In this document: piece after piece, positions 32,808-64,000 of the stretch
Layout of the letters: the number at the start of each line of letters is the position of its first letter
How positions within the stretch are numbered: position 1 is the stretch's first letter
Origin: Felis catus
Taxonomy: Eukaryota
DNA length: 64,000 nt
Direction of reading: 5' to 3'
NCBI RefSeq assembly: GCF_018350175.1
Contig: NC_058368.1
Location: forward strand, 32,056,001-32,120,000
Made by a program: the position numbers and the translations under genes
The notes under the pieces: generated by a model
Databases searched by the model: none
What the model was told of the DNA's origin: nothing
The model's input: the letters and a program-made list of their open reading frames with translations, nothing else

Positions 32808-33888
32808 TACGAAGGAAATGTATTAATGAGCTTCCTTCAGTTGCTATAAATAAGTGCATCAAAAAAAAAAAAATTAGGTGCACTCATCTGTTGTATTTAT
32901 GTTACAAAGAAATATTTTAGAGCTAAAGCCAATTAAATTTTCAGTAGCTTATCACAGAAATTACATGAACAGGCAGACCAGTCTGGAATGACTCTACTAA
33001 GGGTGTTTTTAGAATATTTCCAAAAGCATTCTATTACCTGGATTACTATCACTGTGTTAAACTGTGGACCAAAGCAATGCCTTCTTTTTTTAATTTGGGT
33101 ATTTAATTGTTCTTTAACAATTATATTAATATTTTAATTTTCACTCTACTTATTTGTGACATACTAATTCCAAGTATATTTTTATTCATAAGATGCTAAG
33201 TGATAAAGCGTAATACTTAATAATTTCTCTTTAGAAAAGCAAAAAAAAAAAACAAAAAACAAAACTTGAGATCAGCATTTTTTAAACAGATGTTGCCTAT
33301 TCCACTGTACTTCTCAGGTGTGATCATGTTTAGTGTTAACAATCAAGTCATTTATTTATTTATAGCTATAGTTAGCATAAAACTCTAATTTCCTCATAAA
33401 TCTAACTGCTGGGAACAAAAGTGTTCCATGGAAACATTTGCCAAACCAAGGAAGAGCACTCCTCTCTCAGACATGCTGGGATGTGGTGTTGTTTGGGGGA
33501 TGCCTTGTTCTTCAGAGGTACTGCTGTGAACTGGAGTGAATAGGAACAAGTACTGAAGGAAAATTTGAACCATTCTAGAAATGTGTGTTATGCATATATC
33601 TAGACCATTGTTTCTTAAAGTGAAGAAATAGAAGATAAGAGAAAACCACTGGTTAGCGTGACTTACATTTTCACACAATAACACATAGATGTGATCTGAA
33701 TTACTTGTATTTGAATTTCTCATATTCTTATCCCTCTGTACACATTGCTAGGAAGAATCTGTTAATTTGGTGCATCAATTAAAAAAAAAGTAAGTTACTG
33801 TTACTTTTCCCTTTATAATGTTACATAAGCCTGTGGTATAATGGAGTAATAATTTATACAAAAATGTTTTAGTAGCAATGTATCTGTC

Positions 33889-34077
33889 GGGGCATCTGGA
33901 TGGCTCACTCTGTTGAGTGTTGGGCTGTTGATTTCGGCTCAGGTCATGATCCCAGGATCCTGGGATTGAGCCCCACATCAGCTCTGCACTAGGCGTAGAG
34001 CATGCTTGAGATATTCTCTCTCTCCCTCTGCCCCTCTCTCCAGCTCATACTCTCTCTCTAGAGTAAAAAAAAAAAAA
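33889..34077 (+). mobile_element. Older Can-SINE (first of a tandem pair)
   Basis: ggggcatctggatggctcac head, A-tail. Confidence 0.92.
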
Positions 34078-34082
34078 TCTTT

Positions 34083-34277
34083 GGGGCACCTGGGTGGCTC
34101 AATTGGTTAAGAATCCCACTCTTGATTTTGGCTCAAGTCATGATCTCATGGTCGTGAGATCGAGACCCGCGTCAGGCTGTGTACTAACACTGAAGACTGC
34201 TTGGGATTCTCCCTCTGCCTCTCTCTCTGCCCCACCCTCCCTCAAAATAAATAAATAAGTAAATATTTTTGAAAAAA
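34083..34277 (+). mobile_element. Older Can-SINE (second of a tandem pair)
   Basis: ggggcacctgggtggctcaattgg head; the pair is flanked by aatgtatctgt. Confidence 0.92.
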
Positions 34278-34455
34278 AATGTATCTGTGATACTATGGAT
34301 AAATTTATAAATGTTTATGTGTTGAAGCCAAATACATTAATCTGTGGTCATATTTCACATTTCCAGAGGTGAAAAGTCTACCAATCCCAAACAACTTCTT
34401 GTCCTTCTTGCCCTTCGCTTTTTCTTTCTTTCCACACCCCCCCCCCCCCGCTCCC

Positions 34456-34876
34456 ATGGTAAGAACACTAAACATGAGACCTATCCTCTTAAATATTTAA
34501 ATGTCCAATACAGTATTGTTAACTATAGATATGCTGTAAAGAAGATCTCTAGAACATATTCATCTTACATAACTGAAACTTTGTACCCATAGAACAATTC
34601 TCCTTTCCTACTCAGCCTCTGGAAAACAGCATTCTCCTCTCTGTTTCTATGAGTTTGACTATTTTAGATTATCTTATAAAAGTGGAATCATGCAGTATTT
34701 GTTCCTCTGTGACTATTTCATTTTAGCTTTGTGTCCTCCATGTTCATCCATGTTGTTGCCTATGGCAGGATTTCTTTTTTTTTATGTGAAATAATATCCT
34801 ATTGTATGTATATACCACATTTTCTTTAAGCATTCATCTGTTAATAGATATTTAGATTGTTTCCATATTTGGACTA
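34456..34876 (-). mobile_element. Old L1 (L1MA/L1MB-like) 3' end, non-inverted part of a 5'-inverted element
   Basis: Antisense L1 motifs: tctctgtttctatgagtttgact, gtggaatcatgcagtatttg, tatataccacattttcttt. Confidence 0.88.
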
Positions 34877-35202: not shown

Positions 35203-35731
35203 AAATTTATAGTTTTAATGAAATAAAGAGATTAAGTAATTTACCATTGTGGGTAGTACTCTACATTACTGAGTATGTTTACTCAAAGTCTGTTCATATT
35301 TGCTTATAATTTAGTAATGCACTCTTAAAATTATGGAATTTGAATGGGTACAGGTGCCTGAAATGAGTTAATTTATTTCGACAGTTTTAATAATGGGTAT
35401 GTGTGTGTGTGCTGAGTGGTGTTAAATTAAGTACAGATAGGGATTTGGCATACTATTGAGTTTATTAGATTCACAGACATTAATACATTTATACTTTCTT
35501 ATGAAGAAATTTTATAGCATATAAGTATCACAAAATATATATTTATGAAATTTCAATTATATGTATAAAACTTATCCATAAAATATGAATTTAATAAACC
35601 TCTTAAGTAAATGTATAGAATTAAATAATGTGCAGAATTAATATTTTGTGCAATGTGGAATAAAATACTCAAGTCTTAATTTGAGGCATTCAGTGATGTT
35701 TCAAGTGTTTGGTTAAAAAAGCTCTTTCCTT

Positions 35732-35957
35732 GGGACACCTGGGTGCCTCAGTTGGTTAAGTGGCCAACTCTTGATTTCCACTCAGGTCATGATCTCACAT
35801 GAGCCGTGGAGATCTCTTTGTGAGTTCAAACCCCCCATTGGGCTCTGTGCTGATAGCATAAGCCTGCTTGGGATTCTCTTTCTACCACTCTTTGCTCCTC
35901 TCATGTCTTGTCTCTCTCTCACCCATAAATAAATAAACAAACATACATTAAAAAAAG
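35732..35957 (+). mobile_element. Older Can-SINE
   Basis: Full body; TSD aaaaaagctctttcctt / aaaaaagttatttcctt. Confidence 0.92.
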
Positions 35958-39802: not shown

Positions 39803-40248
39803 GGGGGTGCCTGGGTGGCTCAGTTGGTTAAGTGTCTGACTCTTGATCTTGGCTCAAGTCATGATCTCACAGTGTATGGGATTGAGCCCCACATCCAGCT
39901 TTGTTTTTTTTTTTAATGTTTATTCATTTTTTTATTTTTTTAATGTATGAAATTTATTGTCAAATTGTTTTCATACAACACCCAATGCTCATCCCAAAAG
40001 ATGACCTCTTCAATACCCATCACCTACCCTCCCCTCCCTCCCACCCCCCATCAACCCTCAGTTTGTTCTCAGTTTTTAAGAGTTTCTTACGCTTTGGCTC
40101 TCTCCCACTCTGCCTAAATAACCCACATCCAGCTTTGAACTGACAGTGCAGACCCTGCTTGGAATTCTCTCTCCCTTTCTCTGTGCCCCACCCCTGCTCA
40201 TGCTCTCTCAATCAATCAATCAATCAATCAATAAAACATTTTTTAAAA
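39803..40248 (+). mobile_element. Older Can-SINE nested in the L1 5' UTR, itself interrupted at 39904-40121
   Basis: Head 39803-39903; remainder resumes aactgacagtgcagaccctgcttggaattc with a (TCAA)n tail. Confidence 0.92.
39904..40121 (-). mobile_element. Short 5'-truncated feline L1 (L1_Fc-like) 3' end inserted in a SINE
   Basis: Antisense of aaaactgagaacaaactgagggttgatggggggtgggagggagggg...tttgacaataaatttcat; perfect 16-bp TSD cccacatccagctttg. Confidence 0.92.
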
Positions 40249-41101: not shown

Positions 41102-44100
41102 GGACTCATTGCAAACCTAAAACACACGTATATTAAAAGTAAAGGGATGGAAAAAAATATTATGCAAATAGAAGTGGAAAGACTTTAAAACAAAGACTGT
41201 AACAAGAGACAAAGAAAGATGCTATATAATCATAGAGGATGATCCAACAGGAAGATATAACTTTAATTATTTTTGCACCCAACATGAAAGCACCCAAATA
41301 CATAAAGCAGCTATTAACAAACATAAAAGAAGTAATCAATATTAACACAATACTAGTAAGAGATTTAACACCCCACTTGCATCAATGGACAGATCAGATC
41401 ATCCAAACAGAAAATGAACGAGGAAACAGTGGCTTCGAAGGACACATTGGACCAGATGGATCTAACAGATATATTCAGAACATTCTATCCTGCAACAGCA
41501 GATACATATTCTTTTCAAGTGCACATAGAACATTCTCCAGAATAGATCACATGTTAAGCCACAAAGCAACTCACAAAAAATTCAAAAAGATCGAAGTCAT
41601 ACCATACATCTTTTCTGACCACAATACTATGAAGTCAACCTCAAGAAAAAAATCTATAAAGAACAGAAACACATGGAAGTTAAATAACATACTACTAAAC
41701 AATGCATGGATCAACCAAGAAATCAAAAAAGAAATAAAAAAATACATGGAGAATAATGAAAACAAAAACACCATGGTCTAAAATATTTGGGCTGCCACAA
41801 AAGTTGTTCCAAGAGTGAAGTGTAAAGCAATACAGGTTTACCTCACAAAGCAAGAAAAATCTCAGGTAAACAACCTAACTTTACACCTAAAGGAAGTAGA
41901 GAAAGAAGAACAAACAAAACACAAAATTAATAGAAAGAAGGAAATAATAAAGATTACAGCAGAAATAAATAGAAACAAAAAAAATAGAACAGATGAATGA
42001 AACCCAAGAGGTAATTCTTTGAAAAGATCAACAAAATTGATAAACCTTAATCCAGACTCATCAAAGAAAGTAAGTCTCAAATAAAATCAGAAATGAAATA
42101 GGAGAAATAACAGCCAACATCACAGAAATACAAAAGATAAGAGAATATTATGAAAAATTATATGCCAACAAGTTGGACAATCTAGAAGATTCGGATAAAT
42201 ACTTAGAAACGTATAACCTCCCAAAACTGAATCGAAAAGAAATAGAAATTTTAAATAAACCAATTATCAGGAAGGAAATTGAATCAGTAACCAAAAAAAA
42301 CTCCCAAGAAACAAAAGTCCAGGACCAAATGGCTTCACAGGCAAATTCCAGCAAACATTTAAAGAAGAGTTAATGCCTATTCTTCTCAAACTATTCCAGA
42401 AAATAGAAGAAGCAAAACTTCAAATTAATTCCATGATGTCACCATTATCCTAATACCAAAAACAGATAAAAACACCACAAAAAAGAGAACTACAGGCCAG
42501 TGTCTCTGATGAATATACATGTAAAAATCCTCAACAAAATATTGACAAACAGAATCCAGCAATACACTTAAAAAAAAAATCCTTCATCATGATCAAGTGG
42601 GGTTTATTCCTGGAATGCAATGGTGGTTCAATATTTACAAATCAATCAACATGATATATACATCACAAGAGAATGGATAAAAACCAGACAATCATTTCAA
42701 TAGATGCAGAAAAAAAATTTGATAAATGTATGACATCCATTCATGATTAACAAAGCAAAACAAACAAATTGCTTAACAAAGTAGGTGTAGGAACATACCT
42801 CAATGAAATAAAGGCCATATATGAAAAACCCACAGCTAATTATATGCTCAGTGGTGAAAAACAGAGCTATCTCCCTAATGTAAAGAACAAGACAAGAATC
42901 TCCATTCTTATTATTCAACATAGTTCTGGAAGTGGTAGGCACAGCAATCATACCACAAAAAAAAAAAAAAAAAAAAAAAAGAAAAGAAAAAGAAAGAAAG
43001 AAATGTATCCATATTGGTAAATAAGAAGTAAAACTTACACCATTAGTAGTTTACATGATACTATATATATAGAAAATTCTAAAGACCACCAAAAAACTCT
43101 TAGAACCTATACATGAATTCAGTAAGATTGTAAGATACAAAGTCAGTATATAAAACCTGTTACATTTCTATACACTAATAATGAAGTATCAGAAAAAGAA
43201 ATTAAGAAAACAATCTCACTTGTTATTGAACCAAAAATAATAAAATACCTAGGAATAAAATTAACCAAGCAGGTGAAACATCTATACTCTGAAAACTAAA
43301 ATATTGATGAAAGAATTTGAAAACAACACAAAGAAATGGAAAGATATTCCATGTTCATGGATTGGAAGAACAAATATTGTTGAAATGTACACAGCACTGG
43401 AAGCAATCAATAGATTTAATACAATCCCTATCAATATACCAACAGCATTCTTCACAGAACTAAAACAATTAATCCTAAAATTTCTTGAAACCCAAAAAGA
43501 CGCTGAATAGCCATGGCAATCCTGAAAAAGAAGAACAAAACTAGAGGTATCATAAGATACCTGGATTTCAAGATATCCTACAAATCTGTAGTAATTAAAA
43601 CAGTATGGTAATGGCACAAAAATAGGCACATAGGTCAATGGAACAGAATAGAGAGCACAGGAATATACCCACGATTATATGGTCAATTAATCCTATACAA
43701 AGGAGGCAAGAGTATGCAATGGGAGAAAAGACAGTCTCTTCAACAAATGGTTCTGGGAAAACTGAACAGTTACATGAAAAGGAATGGAAGTGGACCACGT
43801 ACTTAAACCATATACAAAAATGAACTAAAAATGGGTTAAGGACCTAAATGTGAAACATGAAACAATAAACATACTACAAGGGAAAACAGACAGTAATTTC
43901 TCTGACATTGGCGATAGCAATTTTTTCTAGGTATGTCTCCTGAGGCAAAGGCAACAAAAGCAAAAATAAACTATTGGAACTACATCATAATTAAAGGTTT
44001 CTGAACAACAAAGGAAACAACGAACAAAACTAAAAGGAAACTGCAGAGTGGGAGAAGATATCTGCAAATGACATATCTGATAAGGGTTAGTATCCAAAAT

Positions 44101-57423: not shown

Positions 57424-60400
57424 AAAGGTATGCTTTTTACAAGTTGATATACAAGGATTTTTCTTTTGTTATTTTTTTTTCTATTAACCAAAAGACACAT
57501 TCAACATTTTAGCTCTCCTAGTGTTCTTTATTTTTCTAACTGGAAGATATTTTTTCTTATGCTTTCAATATCAAACTCTAGTACAGATTCAATAAGTTAT
57601 ATAATGAACAGTGTCCAAGACATCTGTGAAAAATATTTCAAATTTGACAGAAGACCCTGAAGCTACCTAACTGAACCTGACCTCTTGATGGTACAGAGAA
57701 TCACGGGTAACATGCCATGTGCTTTGTTCATTGTTCATTGATATATTGGCTTGTCTCAGAATGTGATTTTGTTTGGTGTTTCTTTTCTGAAATTTCTTTA
57801 CTGTATTGGGTGTTTAATTAGGGAATTGTGTATCATAGTTTAAAATCTGTGAAAGTTCTCCCTAGTAAGGCTTGATTCACTCTTAACAAGACCATCTAAG
57901 AAGGATCTAAAATACCATGCTGATGCAAACTGAGCATTGAACTGCCTATGAATAGAAATACTGAAACTTGCTATTTGCCTACACACCTAACTTCTATTTA
58001 CATAATAAATAGACCCATGTGGTAGGAGAAACTGGATCAAAAAATTGAATTTGCTAACCAAAATTCCACTTATTTGGGTGTCCTGCAATTCTTCTGAAAT
58101 TCTAAAATAAAAACATGAATATTAGGTATATAGGTTCTAAGCAGAACAAGGCATGACCGAACCACATAAACAGTAGAAAAATAAAACTTCTCCTTTTTCA
58201 AAAGATACCACGTTTGTATACTGTGTGCATATATGATCTGATTTTTTTCCTTCTTTTTAGAAAATGTCTGTGCTAGGGTGAGGTCATTATGACCAAAGCT
58301 GTACAATTTGTTTTAGGTCAATTAACAGATTGAATGGGACGATACCTCACTCTTAGGTGAGCAAAATCATTCTAAGACTTTCTCTGAAGATATTCTATTT
58401 TCATAATAGTGAATCCAGTTCAAAAACTAGATCTGATCAACATAGGACCTCTCAAATGACCTCCCAAATGCTGAAAACTGCCTAACAAAATCATTCTCCT
58501 ATCACTTTTACTCCTAACAAATCAGAATAATGTAAATTTTGATAAAGTTAACCAGAAAGCACAAAAATATTGATAGATATGGTAAATGGACCATATACCA
58601 AGGGCTTCACCTGAAGCATTGTGAATATGTTCATGTTAAATTACAGCATAGATAATGAGGCAGAGTGGAGTTCCGATGCTATGAGCTTCAACTACTTGAG
58701 TTACTTGAACTCTAGTTTCCTCACCTCAAAAACAAAAATAATATTGCTTTTCTATTCATCTGGGAAGAGTCTTATGACTTAAAGAAATACTATCATGAAA
58801 TGACTTCTGAATACATGAAAAGATTTTATAAAAACAATGATATATATGAAATGACTTTAGATTATCATTTATATCTTAATTGATTAATATAAGAATTGAC
58901 TTTTCTTTTATACCTAAATCACTTTAAAATATAAATATATAATCATATCACACAATTGCATATATAACATATATTTCAACATATCATTTGCTGATATTAT
59001 TGGGAATAAAATGATTCCCAAATGTTTTAAATTCTGAATGCATGTTAATTTACAGAATCCTCCTAACAATCCTATGAAGTAGGTATTCTGGAATGAATGA
59101 GAGGATAATTTTTTTATTGGCATTTTAACCAGTAAGGAACTCTTGACCTTGCTTTCTTGAATGTTTCTTTGTATTACATGTTGCAAATGCACAGTATTCT
59201 TTAATACAAGAATACAGATTTTCATGCTCAATAAATAATAAATAACTTTTAGATTTTTCTGTGGATAAAATACAAAATTATTGATATTTTCTCCCAGTTA
59301 TATATTTAGTTACCCATACATTGCATCTTGTGAAGTTTACCCAAGCTACTAAATAGATTCCTTCCCATGAATTTAACTCCTAAATATCATTTCTTATGTT
59401 ATTTGAAAACCCCTTTCTTCCATTTATTTTAATGGAAGAAGTTAATGCAAGTATCCTCTGCTTTTTCAGATGTTGTGATTCCTACACAAATCAAAATTGT
59501 GTTTTATAGAGAATACTGAGGCATAAATCTTCAGTCACTTTGCTTGAAAACTAAAGGGTTTAAACCCAATTATCTTAATAGTTTGATGCTGCTGTAAAAT
59601 TCTATGAGGTTGTGACTACATGATTTCTTCTTTGGTATGAGATGATTTTCTCAGGAATCATCACTTGCTTACACTCTGGGGCTGAAACCTTCCTGTGCAA
59701 AGCTTTCCTAAAGCATTGTCCAGTTTCATTTAAGAAGCCAAGAGGATGAACATTCCAGTTGTCATTTTTTGTGATTACATTTCCACAAACTGAAACTGCA
59801 CACTAATTTATTTTCTTTTTCCCTATTATGTATTGAAAATATAGTTGGATTTTTTTCCAGATCATAAATGAGGAGTTTACTCCAGTCACTACTCATTATA
59901 TCACACTGGACATACGTCACTCTTTGATATAACTCACTGCAGCTGTGTAGCCATCTGAGTTTGAACCCATTTGCACAATGAAGGGGGGAAAAGTGAGAGG
60001 GAACGCATTTACTCTCCATGAGAAATCACTAAGTATGATCAATGGACAAAATTTTAGTGAGGGACAGTATGATAACCATGTTATCGTAATTAACACACAT
60101 AATCCCTTCTAAATATAACACCCCAACTTAATAAAACAGCATTTCCTATCAAAACTGGACCTAAAAATCAGCTATGTCTTTAGTTATTGAGACACTACTA
60201 GTTATTTGGGGAACCTACTGTTTTAGATGAAAGTGAATCATACAATTGGTCTTAAATAGTTGAAGATTTATGTAGGTCTAGAAAAGAATTTGTAATGAGA
60301 AATTTCTGGTCCATTCTCTATAGAGCATAATGTAATATTTACAAAATAGATCTTGTCATTTTTCTTGATTATACATTCCTGTGTATTCCGGTTTTATTTA

Positions 60401-60785
60401 ATGCATGATAAAATGAAAACACTACCATGTCCTAAAATGTTCTAATTGAGCTGGGCCAGTATAGTCTTCCCTTCTGATCTTGCCACTCTTTACCCTGATC
60501 CGTATACTTCAGTGACAGTGGCCTTTTTCATATGTGGTAAATTTGTTCCCAACTCAGACTTTATTTGCTTGGAATTCATTCACTTTTAAGAAATTTTTCA
60601 TTCAAGATATGGGGAAGTTGAATGGCTGAAATGGAGTCCATGTTTTATATTCTTCTCACTATGGTGCTTTCCACAATGTGGATGCTAGAGGGAAAGTAGT
60701 GATGGGCCACTCAGGGGACTTGAGGAAGTGGCTGTTTATCAAAACTGTTTATGAATTATCTCAATGTTTTGTTGGCTGGCCATAC

Positions 60786-61219
60786 TGTTGGAGGAGGTCA
60801 TTCAAGAAGATGTAACCACAGGTTTGACCCATGAGCTACACCTGTCCACTTAGAAGCTCCTCAGCCCCTTCTCCATCCTTGGAATGTGTGTTCTGCTTGC
60901 CTTCCCCACTCCCAGAAGCTGCCCCGAGGATAAAAACTTGAGATAGAAATGTGGTGATGATACTATCTCAACCACCATCTACACTGGATCTAGTTAAAGT
61001 CTCTCTATAAATTTTTAAGATTCTGGTGGGTAGATGCAGAGGTATACTTGTTTTGCAGCCACCTAAGTCAAGTCTCATAAGTAAGTTCCCTTGCTTATTA
61101 AATCTGCCATCTACCAATGTGGAGTGGTCTTCCTCTTTCTTTGGTCTCTCCTTGCCCATCATGACTACATAGGCTGGTTTTAGTTCTACCTGGGAAGCTT
61201 CTAAGGTTGCAACCCAGCA
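60786..61219 (+). mobile_element. Solo LTR (ERV1-like, probably carnivore-specific)
   Basis: TG...CA bounded ~435 bp; ctataaa near 61005; attaaa polyA-type signal near 61097 in taagtaagttcccttgcttattaaa. Confidence 0.7.
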
Positions 61220-61368
61220 ACTACAGCATATTATATGCAGTCACATAAATACACAGGTTCAATAACTAGAATACAAGATCATTGAAAGGATGAACTGAAT
61301 CATGTCAATTGTTTTATACTCTCTAACCAGCATAATATTTACCATTTATTGAACATAAAATATACATA

Positions 61369-61831
61369 GAGTAGCCGCCCCCCTCCCCGATCTGTGGTTC
61401 CAGTTTCTACAGTTTCTGTTACCTGTGGCCAACCATGGTCCAGCTGCAGGTTATTCCCCCTGAGGATCATTAGAAAGTCAGTAGCACCTAATGTTATATC
61501 CTGATGCCTACATCATTCACCTCACTTCATCTCATCACTTAGGCATTCATCATCTTACAGCATCCCAAGAAGGAGAGTGAGTATACACAATAAGATATTT
61601 CATTCACATTCACATAACTTTTAGTACAATATTTTGTTATAATTGCTCTTTTTTATTATTAGTTATTATCATTAATCACTTACTATGCCTAATAAAGTTT
61701 ACCATAGATATGTATGTATAGTATAGGAAAAAATATAGTATAATATATATAGTGTTCAGTACTATCTTCAGCCTCAGGCATCTACAAGAGTTTTAGAACA
61801 TATCACCCACAGATAAGTGGGGGAACTACTG
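61369..61831 (+). mobile_element. MER44-type (Tigger7-derived) non-autonomous DNA transposon
   Basis: Degenerate TIRs gagtagccgcccccctccccgatctgtgg / ccacagataagtgggggaactactg; internal cacattcacataacttttagtaca motif. Strand nominal. Confidence 0.85.
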
Positions 61832-62317
61832 TGCACATATTTAATGTTCCAAATTACTCTTGCTTATTCTTATTATCTCTTGAGCAAATTAAAAGTCAAC
61901 TTTCAACAAATATTGTTACCACCTAGTGCTCTAGATGACACATAAAGAAATGTAAGTGATCATTTTTAATTTGATTCTTCAATTCCTTGCTATTACTTAC
62001 TTACATTAATAACAATCAATATAGCTTAGTATAGTGAAATACAACAAAGACAAATAACTCTTCATTGCATATACATTACTGTTTGGTTTGTTTCTATGTG
62101 GTGTCAGTTTCCCTTAGTGTTAATTTTTAAGAAAAAAGGTACAGCTTTTGAAATTCTGTGCATAGTTCACACATACAAGTATATTTATTCAGTTATCTCT
62201 TTGTTACTTCCCATTACACCTTTTTGTAAACATCCCTATTTCAAGTATTCATTGTCATCATTCCCTTTAGTAGCTCTGAGTAAACCTGATAGCATCTCCT
62301 AAAGAGAGAAAAATCTA

Positions 62318-62585
62318 TATAATATAATATAGTATAATAAATATAAGTAATATATAATTATATGCATGTATTATATATAATATAAAAATAATATGTGCAA
62401 TATATAATATCTTACATATATATCATATAGCAAATATATATTGATAATTAATAATAAACTGATCAATAAATATCAATCATGTATTTTATATAAAATATGA
62501 ATATAAATGTGAGTGATATAATATTCTAATATAATTAATTAATATAAATTAGACTGTATAATATGCTAACAGCACATATATGCTA
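62318..62585. repeat. AT-rich low-complexity junction DNA
   Basis: Near-pure A/T tract abutting the truncated SINE half. Confidence 0.85.
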
Positions 62586-62693
62586 GCAGCATGGAGTCTG
62601 ACACAGGACTCCATCCCAGGAACCATGAGGTCATGACCTGAGCCCAAAATCAAGAGTTGGACACTTAACTGACTGAGCCTCCCAGGCACCCCC
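62586..62693 (-). mobile_element. 5' half of a split Can-SINE
   Basis: Minus strand reads ggggtgcctgggaggctcagtc...gtcagactccatgctg and then stops; no CT tract or tail. Confidence 0.92.
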
Positions 62694-62739
62694 AGAGAAA
62701 GATTTTAAAAGAGGAAATGGAATAGTTAGAATAGCAAGA

Positions 62740-63130
62740 ATGAGGTTTGGAACCAGGAAAGTTCCTGGCTTGTTTTGAGAAGATGTGCTTATGGTGCACT
62801 TAGACCATATGGTGTATCGTATAGATGGTGGGCCAGGCTGCAAAAGGTATTAAAGGCAGGATAAGGAGGTTGGTGTCTTTTGGTGGCAGTGAGAAAGGAG
62901 ATAATGGAGGTTTTTAAGCAGAGGAATGAATGACAACCAATCTGAGTTGTAAAAGAACATGGTGACAGAATGGTGGATAGTATCTTAGTCGAAAAGAGAC
63001 TGAAAGCAAGGAAGTTAGTGAGAACACTGAACTGGTTCAGAAATAAGGTGAAAGTATCTGCTACGTAGAGTGGTATTACAGGGGCTTGGGAGAAATGGAT
63101 GGATTTCACACACACTATGGTATAAAGAGC
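62740..63130 (-). mobile_element. L2 fragment
   Basis: atggaggtttttaagcagaggaatga...agactgaaagcaaggaagttagtgagaa resembles antisense L2. Confidence 0.6.
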
Positions 63131-63264
63131 TGTAAAAGATACATATTGATTTAACACTTTTCATTACATTTGTTTGTAACTGATTAGAGTTTTACTTCTC
63201 CTGATATAAGGGTAGTACAAGGAGCTATAGAAAATTCCCTAAATTTATACCTTTTGTTTAAATA

Positions 63265-63385
63265 TTATACATATATATATAGCATATGCATGCCTAACAT
63301 ATATGTATACATACATATATATGTGTATGTGTACATATATATGTGTACATACATACATATATATGTATATACACACATACACACC
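63265..63385. repeat. (TA)/(TG)/(CA) compound low-complexity repeat
   Basis: Direct inspection. Confidence 0.85.
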
Positions 63386-63634
63386 CGCAGGCACACATGC
63401 ATTATTAAGCATGTATCAAAACTGAAGGTATTTAAGAGAAGAGAGTCATCTCCTAATTTTAAAAATTTTTTTTTTATGTTTAACTGATTTGATTTCCTTA
63501 ATTAGAAAATACAATATATAACTTCCATTATGGAAGACTTTCATATATATATGAAAGAATTTATATGATATTTATTTATATATATTATATATTTACATAT
63601 TATATAGTATATTATATAGTCTAATTTATATATA

Positions 63635-63774
63635 TGCTGGGGGTTCTCTCTCTCCTTCTTTCTCTGCCCCTTCCCCACTTATGTGTGCACATGTTCTCCC
63701 TCTCTCTCCCTCTCTCTCTCTTTGTCTCTCTCTCTCTCTCTCTCTCAAAAATAAATAAACTTTTAAAAATAAAA
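63635..63774 (+). mobile_element. 3' half of a split Can-SINE
   Basis: Begins tgctgggggttctctc (consensus-like tgcttgggattctctc), CT tract, aataaataaac tail; no tRNA-derived head. Confidence 0.92.
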
Positions 63775-64000
63775 TAAAATCTTTCTCTAATCTGAAAGGA
63801 CTTTGCTTAAGAATAGCATTCTGACTCAGTAGCCAATTTACTTGAAACAGTATATTTGTTGCAACCAATATATTGTGGAATACTGGAAAGCAGGCATACA
63901 AAATATTGTGCTGTTTCGAACTGAATTCATTTAACTGACCTGCCAATTCCCACATTTTCTCATTCACAGTTTGCATTTTCATGTAACTTTTAACTGAATT

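Follow-up and report, generated by a model that had tools for sequence, protein, structure and literature searches.

Why do two pieces of a carnivore SINE lie on opposite strands at one locus of the cat genome, each bordered by a copy of the same 14-nt sequence, with one of the copies turned around? Small inversions that lack flanking repeats are difficult to detect, and their origin is more difficult still to account for. The split SINE at this locus helps with both: it yields the ancestral orientation without an outgroup, and its junctions point to a likely route, fold-back or template switching on AT-rich microhomology.

We studied the locus within the window, that is, the whole 64-kb stretch of DNA that was analyzed. 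The window has a GC content of 34%, contains no N, and carries more than 20 CanSINE copies that fall into three age classes, the young copies presumably being of the cat-specific kind. Several other features of the window were recorded along the way. Two old CanSINEs stand head to tail at 33889-34290, where the second begins directly after the A-tail of the first, and another old CanSINE (35731-35945) has a 16-nt insertion within its tRNA-derived part. An element with inverted ends and no second copy in the window lies at 61372-61830; we take it to be a Tigger/MER-type DNA transposon derivative. A stop-to-stop frame of 181 amino acids (41236-41781) presumably stems from the endonuclease region of L1 ORF2. 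On the minus strand, 13649-13751 matches U6 snRNA over the full length of the model with 51 bits and is probably a retrocopy, and an AT-rich tract at 2007-2136 contains a 65-bp tandem duplication whose copies match at 98%.

One SINE in two halves

An earlier note on this DNA, made from the letters alone, had proposed that a minus-strand SINE head stops about where a plus-strand SINE tail begins. A profile built from the seven old CanSINE copies in the same window bears this out: the head covers model positions 1-111 (62692-62580) and the tail begins at model position 116 (63634), which leaves a gap of four positions and no overlap. The head is indeed a 5' half on the minus strand, but the left limit of 62586 given for it falls short, as the head reaches 62580.

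The two 14-mers named in the same note are exact reverse complements, as it had stated: the sequence at 63775-63788 on the plus strand recurs inverted at 62694-62707, each is present once in the 64-kb window, and the match cannot be extended at either end. The inverted copy directly borders the minus-strand SINE head at its first base, and the plus-strand copy follows the end of the A-tail of the 3' half. Read in the SINE sense, this TSD lies at a TT/AAAA site, the motif of the L1 endonuclease (10.1101/2021.12.20.472354); the TSD proper may be 13 nt long if the first T is counted as part of the tail. The chance of such an inverted match is 2.3e-5 under an order-2 model with 40 x 8 allowed positions. 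Among the SINEs of the window, a TSD-like match that reaches 14 nt joins 7 of 23 heads to their own tails, the split SINE being one of the seven, versus 1 of 506 mismatched head/tail pairs, and that one is a poly-A run. Direct TSDs around an internally inverted insert were not found, since the 14-mer is inverted and no direct match longer than 7 nt occurs near the left edge; the 7-nt direct repeat (62310-62316 / 63776-63782) was dropped as a candidate TSD and the 14-nt match preferred.

An ordinary nested insertion at 39803-40245 served as a control: its SINE halves lie on the same strand, overlap on the model, and are accompanied by a direct 16-bp TSD. There, an old CanSINE is split by a minus-strand insertion of about 220 bp that has a T-rich end and a perfect direct TSD (39888-39903 / 40122-40137); we take the insertion to be an L1 3' end.

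Extent of the putative inverted block

Five rearranged versions of the locus were examined alongside the sequence as it stands. When 62580-63633 is reversed, a single SINE match appears that spans model positions 1-161 with 103.5 bits, versus 80.3 bits for the head and 7.4 bits for the tail as they stand, scored against the profile of the CanSINEs of the window. Reversal of the block proposed in the earlier note (62586-63535) leaves the halves apart, and its right end has to be moved from 63535 to about 63633. The central idea of that note, one SINE cut by a local inversion, is nevertheless well supported by the inverted TSD, the complementary halves, and the element restored upon reversal. 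Judging from the sequence, we consider it very probable that a local genomic inversion of some kind took place here.

Because reversal of 62580-63633 restores the SINE, the simplest block ends at about 63633. The far breakpoint most likely lay within a single AT-rich tract that is now in two parts (Table 1). The size of the block is 1,054-1,073 bp, depending on the limits taken. The far breakpoint has no SINE match, and a retrotransposon is found at one breakpoint only.

Table 1. Features of the split CanSINE locus, with positions in the window
Feature	Position	Strand	Basis or remark
AT-rich tract, left part, with degenerate 50-bp and 41-bp repeats; probably the part left in place	62315..62560	.	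12% GC over 62315-62564
27-nt inverted duplication, copy 1 (19 nt plus the 8-nt microhomology)	62542..62568	+	25/27 match
Inverted block, ~1.05-1.07 kb, junction 1 to junction 2 (putative)	62561..63633	-	Reversal restores the SINE; reconstructed from one sequence
Junction 1: 7-of-8-nt microhomology, tract versus reverse complement of the SINE end	62561..62568	+	Post hoc chance ~0.002
Templated repeat of the broken end of the SINE head, 17-nt spacing	62561..62577	-	13/15 to 62578-62592
CanSINE 5' half, old type, model 1-111	62580..62693	-	Profile
5' TSD, now inverted	62694..62707	-	Unique 14-mer
Former upstream flank, 822 bp, inverted; includes a microsatellite	62708..63529	-	No second copy in the window
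Pair of adjoining hairpins, with stems of 7 bp and 10 bp, at the outer margin of the right AT-rich tract	63522..63557	.	0/1000 shuffles with two such G/C-containing stems (post hoc)
AT-rich tract, right part; probable remainder of the left tract, moved by the inversion	63530..63633	-	11.5% GC
27-nt inverted duplication, copy 2	63605..63631	-	25/27 match
Junction 2: no homology, 2-3 extra A/T bases	63632..63633	.	Sequence
CanSINE 3' half from model 116, with CT-rich region and A-tail	63634..63774	+	Profile
3' TSD, original place	63775..63788	+	Unique 14-mer

Within the block, 62760-63100 is presumably L2-like, and a (TA)/(CA) microsatellite at 63266-63379 has strong hairpin potential. An Rfam search of 61800-64000 gave 44 matches, many of them to miRNA families, all under the gathering score and centered on the microsatellite region (63260-63460); we read them as chance. 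The strand skew of 62708-63260 is reversed relative to its flanks (+0.41 versus -0.20 and -0.10); however, an old repeat could cause such a skew, and it was not counted as evidence. A second copy of the block or of its flanks was not found within the window. Exact-pattern scans gave 0 matches for the left flank in metagenome contigs and 0 matches for a SINE stretch in viral, metagenome, and genome contigs, and a blastn search of phages and plasmids with 61840-64000 likewise found nothing. A search for sequencing runs with 58000-64000, confined to PacBio libraries, listed none, and no weight is given to this.

Junctions in AT-rich DNA

Both broken ends of the SINE run into AT-rich tracts (62315-62579 and 63530-63633), which the earlier note had left uninterpreted, together with a 27-nt inverted duplication. 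Only five segments of the window have a GC content of 12% or less, and three of the five are located at these two junctions. When the tracts are joined and the 27-mer is counted once, the 41-bp array grows modestly, from 2.0 to 2.5 copies. Likeness between the tracts beyond the 27-mer is marginal, with 42-45 of 1,000 shuffles scoring as high.

The score of the 27-mer itself was reached by 5 of 1,000 shuffles, and the best of 12 other AT-rich tracts scored 17 versus 21. One of its two mismatches falls in the 8-nt stretch in which the left copy is derived from the SINE. The segment 62561-62575 repeats the broken end of the SINE head (62578-62592) at 13 of 15 positions, a match equaled in 2 of 1,000 shuffles. 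Four model positions of the SINE were lost at the break. The statistics for the microhomology and the hairpins were picked post hoc, after the sequence had been viewed. Among exact inverted repeats of at least 14 nt within 2 kb, outside SINE-SINE and simple-repeat matches (33 matches sorted by eye), the TSD and the core of the 27-mer are two of only three, and they sit at opposite ends of the inverted block, one at each. The third, an exact 14-nt repeat at 33324-33337 / 34464-34477 with its copies 1.15 kb apart, is probably due to chance. In this reconstruction from one genome, the junctions show the hallmarks of a microhomology-mediated template switch or a fold-back inversion: microhomology of 7 of 8 nt, no long inverted repeat, a gain of 27 nt, and a loss of four positions.

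A proposed single lesion in an integrated SINE

The reading that we favor, with a probability of roughly 0.55, is that one break or stalled fork in an integrated SINE was followed by fold-back or template switching onto AT-rich microhomology about 1 kb upstream and by end-joining to the SINE tail. An old CanSINE would have inserted through L1 target-primed reverse transcription, the established route of such SINE insertion, with a direct TSD of 13-14 bp. An AT-rich tract of about 330 bp would already have been present about 0.8 kb upstream of it. A double-strand break or a stalled fork near SINE position 111-116 would then have produced a free 3' end, which may have undergone one slippage, copying about 15 nt of its own sequence a second time (the repeat itself is observed). 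The slipped end may have paired with the 7-of-8-nt inverted match in the AT-rich tract about 1.05 kb upstream and been extended from there; the match is observed, and the pairing is our proposal. Had the fold-back opened 27 nt into the stem, or had the template switch overrun its start by 27 nt, the 27-nt inverted duplication would have arisen. The other end would have been joined without homology to the SINE tail, with the loss of four model positions, and the outcome would be a 1.07-kb inversion with the SINE head and the 5' TSD inside it. A single lesion in the SINE would thus account for every junction feature. The inversion is most likely a neutral scar.

Two published patterns bear on this proposal. 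Self-annealed break ends are described as leaving homology at only one of the two junctions (10.1101/2024.12.14.628481), and AT-rich and poly(dA:dT) DNA is described as enriched around template-switch points (PMC7954356).

Subfamily and age of the SINE

The element has the hallmarks of CanSINEs: a tRNA-derived head, a CT-rich region, an A-tail, and a TSD at an L1 endonuclease site. The head is of the old type by +18 bits over the felid-type profile. The tail prefers the felid-type profile over the old one by 15 bits, a value that falls in both calibration ranges (old, -17.8 to +9.7; felid-type, -51.2 to -5.1; tail, -15). It also has a C after TTCT, which is present in 6 of 7 old copies and in 0 of 16 felid-type copies.

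At position 39, the head reads TCTTGAT, one mismatch away from the 7-nt motif of subfamily I that the text of PMC4084570 places near position 36, and the 7-nt motif of subfamily II, placed there near position 118, is absent from the head end. The corresponding B-box column carries A, not T, if, as we infer, this column equals position 70 of that paper. Going by the motifs named in its text, the head fits feliform subfamily I of PMC4084570, which that study traces back some 50 million years, to the feliform ancestor. Relative to the majority of the other old copies, the head differs at 22 of 109 positions and, outside CpG-like columns, at 8 of 83 (10%).

Order of insertion and inversion

The inversion is likely to have followed the SINE insertion. 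On the one hand, divergence cannot order the two events, because the divergence of the TSD does not exceed that of the duplications that arose with the inversion (0 of 14 versus 3 of 38 mismatches; Fisher p = 0.55). At the 10% non-CpG divergence of the head, the probability of a 14/14 identity is 0.05, and the perfect TSD is thus somewhat unexpected; of the other old copies, five of seven have a recognizable TSD, each with 1-2 mismatches. The event duplications (3/38, or 1.6-23% pairwise divergence) are likewise less diverged than the 10% of the head predicts (P = 0.055). They do differ, however, which makes a recent polymorphism improbable unless the differences stem from error-prone synthesis.

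On the other hand, a later inversion is supported by the normal 5' junction, the four-position gap between the halves, and decayed-CpG states in the duplicated SINE end. In both copies of this end, TG and CA occupy two positions at which old copies vary in the manner of decayed CpGs; this suggests that the SINE aged in place before the event. Since the old copy at 35731 has the same TG/T/CA states, the support from the shared states is weak to moderate; these states could have been inherited from the source gene.

Alternative explanations

The inversion may instead have been coupled to the insertion: break ends made by L1 ORF2p would have self-annealed during SINE integration, and an intact SINE would never have existed here. 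L1 insertions with flanking inversions of about 0.9 kb and preserved TSD-like overlaps of 4-15 bp have been reported from cell clones and cancers, and in one of them the inverted part includes L1 sequence (10.1101/2024.12.14.628481); a TSD no more diverged than the event duplications is what such coupling would leave. However, the 5' TSD is joined normally to SINE position 1, which implies that a full-length cDNA was made and joined, and the halves meet within four positions, as predicted for a break in a finished element. The decayed-CpG states common to both copies of the duplicated end also speak against coupling, as do event duplications that are less diverged than the head predicts, although the same holds for the TSD. 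We regard it as unlikely. If it did happen, fold-back on AT-rich microhomology during integration would have produced, in a single germline step, a SINE insertion and a 1-kb inversion with both TSD junctions normal. In our literature search, cases of this kind came up for L1 only, in cell clones and tumors (10.1101/2024.12.14.628481), and none for a SINE or in the germline. A different sequence of events, with a rather low probability, starts from two breaks (~62315/63530 and within the SINE), between the ends of which polymerase-theta-type repair would have synthesized both AT-rich tracts as filler. Such synthesis would fit the hairpins that mark the right tract at its outer margin, the templated copy of the broken SINE end, and the first 11-12 nt of the left tract, which recur twice and inverted in the right tract; synthesis in three modes, both in cis and in trans, is on record (PMC4912351). 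Yet the insertions described there are short, with a median of 7 bp and occasionally more than 25, which argues against fillers of 250 bp and 100 bp and led us to take the tract as older than the inversion. An older tract is also suggested by its internal repeats, which match at 75-82% versus 93% for the 27-mer, and hairpin density in the tracts is not raised overall (229/300 and 52/300 shuffles reach the observed level).

The remaining explanations are weaker still. The layout of an inverted 5' part, a forward 3' part, and a small deletion at the inner junction is that of twin priming, a process credited with about 85% of human inversions under 2 kb, arising inside L1 (10.1101/2021.12.20.472354). 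A longer RNA containing flank, SINE, and both TSDs could have been copied in this way, with everything from 62.57 kb to beyond 64 kb being the insertion and its 5' part inverted; the window ends 212 bp past the TSD, and a poly-A could follow further on. Such a retrocopy is improbable, as it leaves unexplained both the inverted copy, at the inner junction, of 27 nt from the left flank and the AT-rich tracts at both sides, and 63789-64000 contains no A-run of at least six, no AATAAA or ATTAAA, and no direct repeat of the left flank longer than 7 nt. It is very unlikely that the whole AT-rich tract was first inside the SINE and that 62315-63535 was inverted. The geometry works, with head and tail on one strand and direct TSDs, but a prior insertion of about 350 bp in the SINE is needed, and reversal leaves about 350 bp inside the element; why copies of the 27-mer end beside both SINE ends, and why the edge of the right tract (63529-63571) repeats sequence from inside the block, is then not accounted for. 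That two unrelated SINE fragments came to be flanked by a chance 14-mer is highly improbable: the felid-type preference of the tail would suit this and lies inside both calibration ranges, but chance would have to account at once for the TSD (2e-5), for ends that complement each other, and for the 27-mer (0.005), and the C after TTCT in the tail agrees with an old-type head. An assembly error is hardly credible, in spite of both junctions being in low-complexity DNA, because a misjoin would not yield diverged duplicates (2/27 and 2/15 mismatches), a loss of four positions, and a templated repeat.

Comparison with known inversions

As reconstructed here by break, fold-back or template switching, and end-joining, the locus works like known small inversions of the class with a retrotransposon at one breakpoint. 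In the human-chimpanzee comparison of PMC2603318, an L1 or Alu is reported at one breakpoint only in 63 of 203 non-RRMI inversions; microhomology is proposed for them, and inversions are polarized by TSDs. The cat locus likewise has one break in a retrotransposon and the other outside any copy, microhomology, and TSDs that give the ancestral state. It differs in that the element is a carnivore SINE, the event is deduced from a single genome with no outgroup, and the microhomology, the inverted duplication, and the templated repeat are visible at the base level. As in RRMI, displaced TSDs reveal the inversion, but RRMI, as described in PMC2603318, needs two inverted copies and gives two chimeric elements with swapped TSDs, whereas here one element with one TSD pair is in two halves. 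RRMI was therefore rejected, as neither two inverted copies nor swapped TSD pairs are present.

Template switching, FoSTeS, MMBIR, and alternative end-joining have in common with this locus the lack of long repeats, short microhomology, a small deletion and duplication at the breakpoints, and an AT-rich start (PMC7954356, PMC3439969, 10.1101/2021.12.20.472354). In the four-point notation of PMC7954356, we would assign our reconstruction to the order 3-1-2-4; the short-range events described there have a median of 12 nt and a maximum of 128 nt, whereas about 1.07 kb is inverted here. The inversions induced by L1 in 10.1101/2024.12.14.628481 resemble it in their size of about 1 kb, their place beside a TPRT site, the TSD that is kept, and homology at one junction only; however, those described are somatic or from cell culture and occurred during L1 insertion, whereas here a SINE is cut mid-element and both TSD junctions are normal. 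Twin priming also yields an inverted 5' part, a forward 3' part, and a small consensus deletion between them. Its TSDs are direct and flank the insert, whereas at this locus the 5' TSD shares the inverted orientation of the head and is separated from the tail by 822 bp and an AT-rich tract. A twin-primed SINE was rejected on the ground that the 14-mer is inverted, not direct. Small inversions with micro-deletions and micro-insertions are known in mouse (PMC3439969) and in human (PMC12350158, 10.1101/2021.12.20.472354). The literature search, with most subscription papers outside its scope, turned up neither this locus nor any carnivore SINE divided in this manner.

Implications

No gene or function is implicated by the inversion. 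Its layout, with SINE halves that lie on opposite strands and complement each other on the consensus and with one TSD copy inverted, can be searched for genome-wide, which would count such events and give the share that is coupled to insertion. If the SINE belongs to subfamily I, then hyenas, mongooses, or civets may keep the intact allele, and the locus would then be a two-step phylogenetic marker with low homoplasy.
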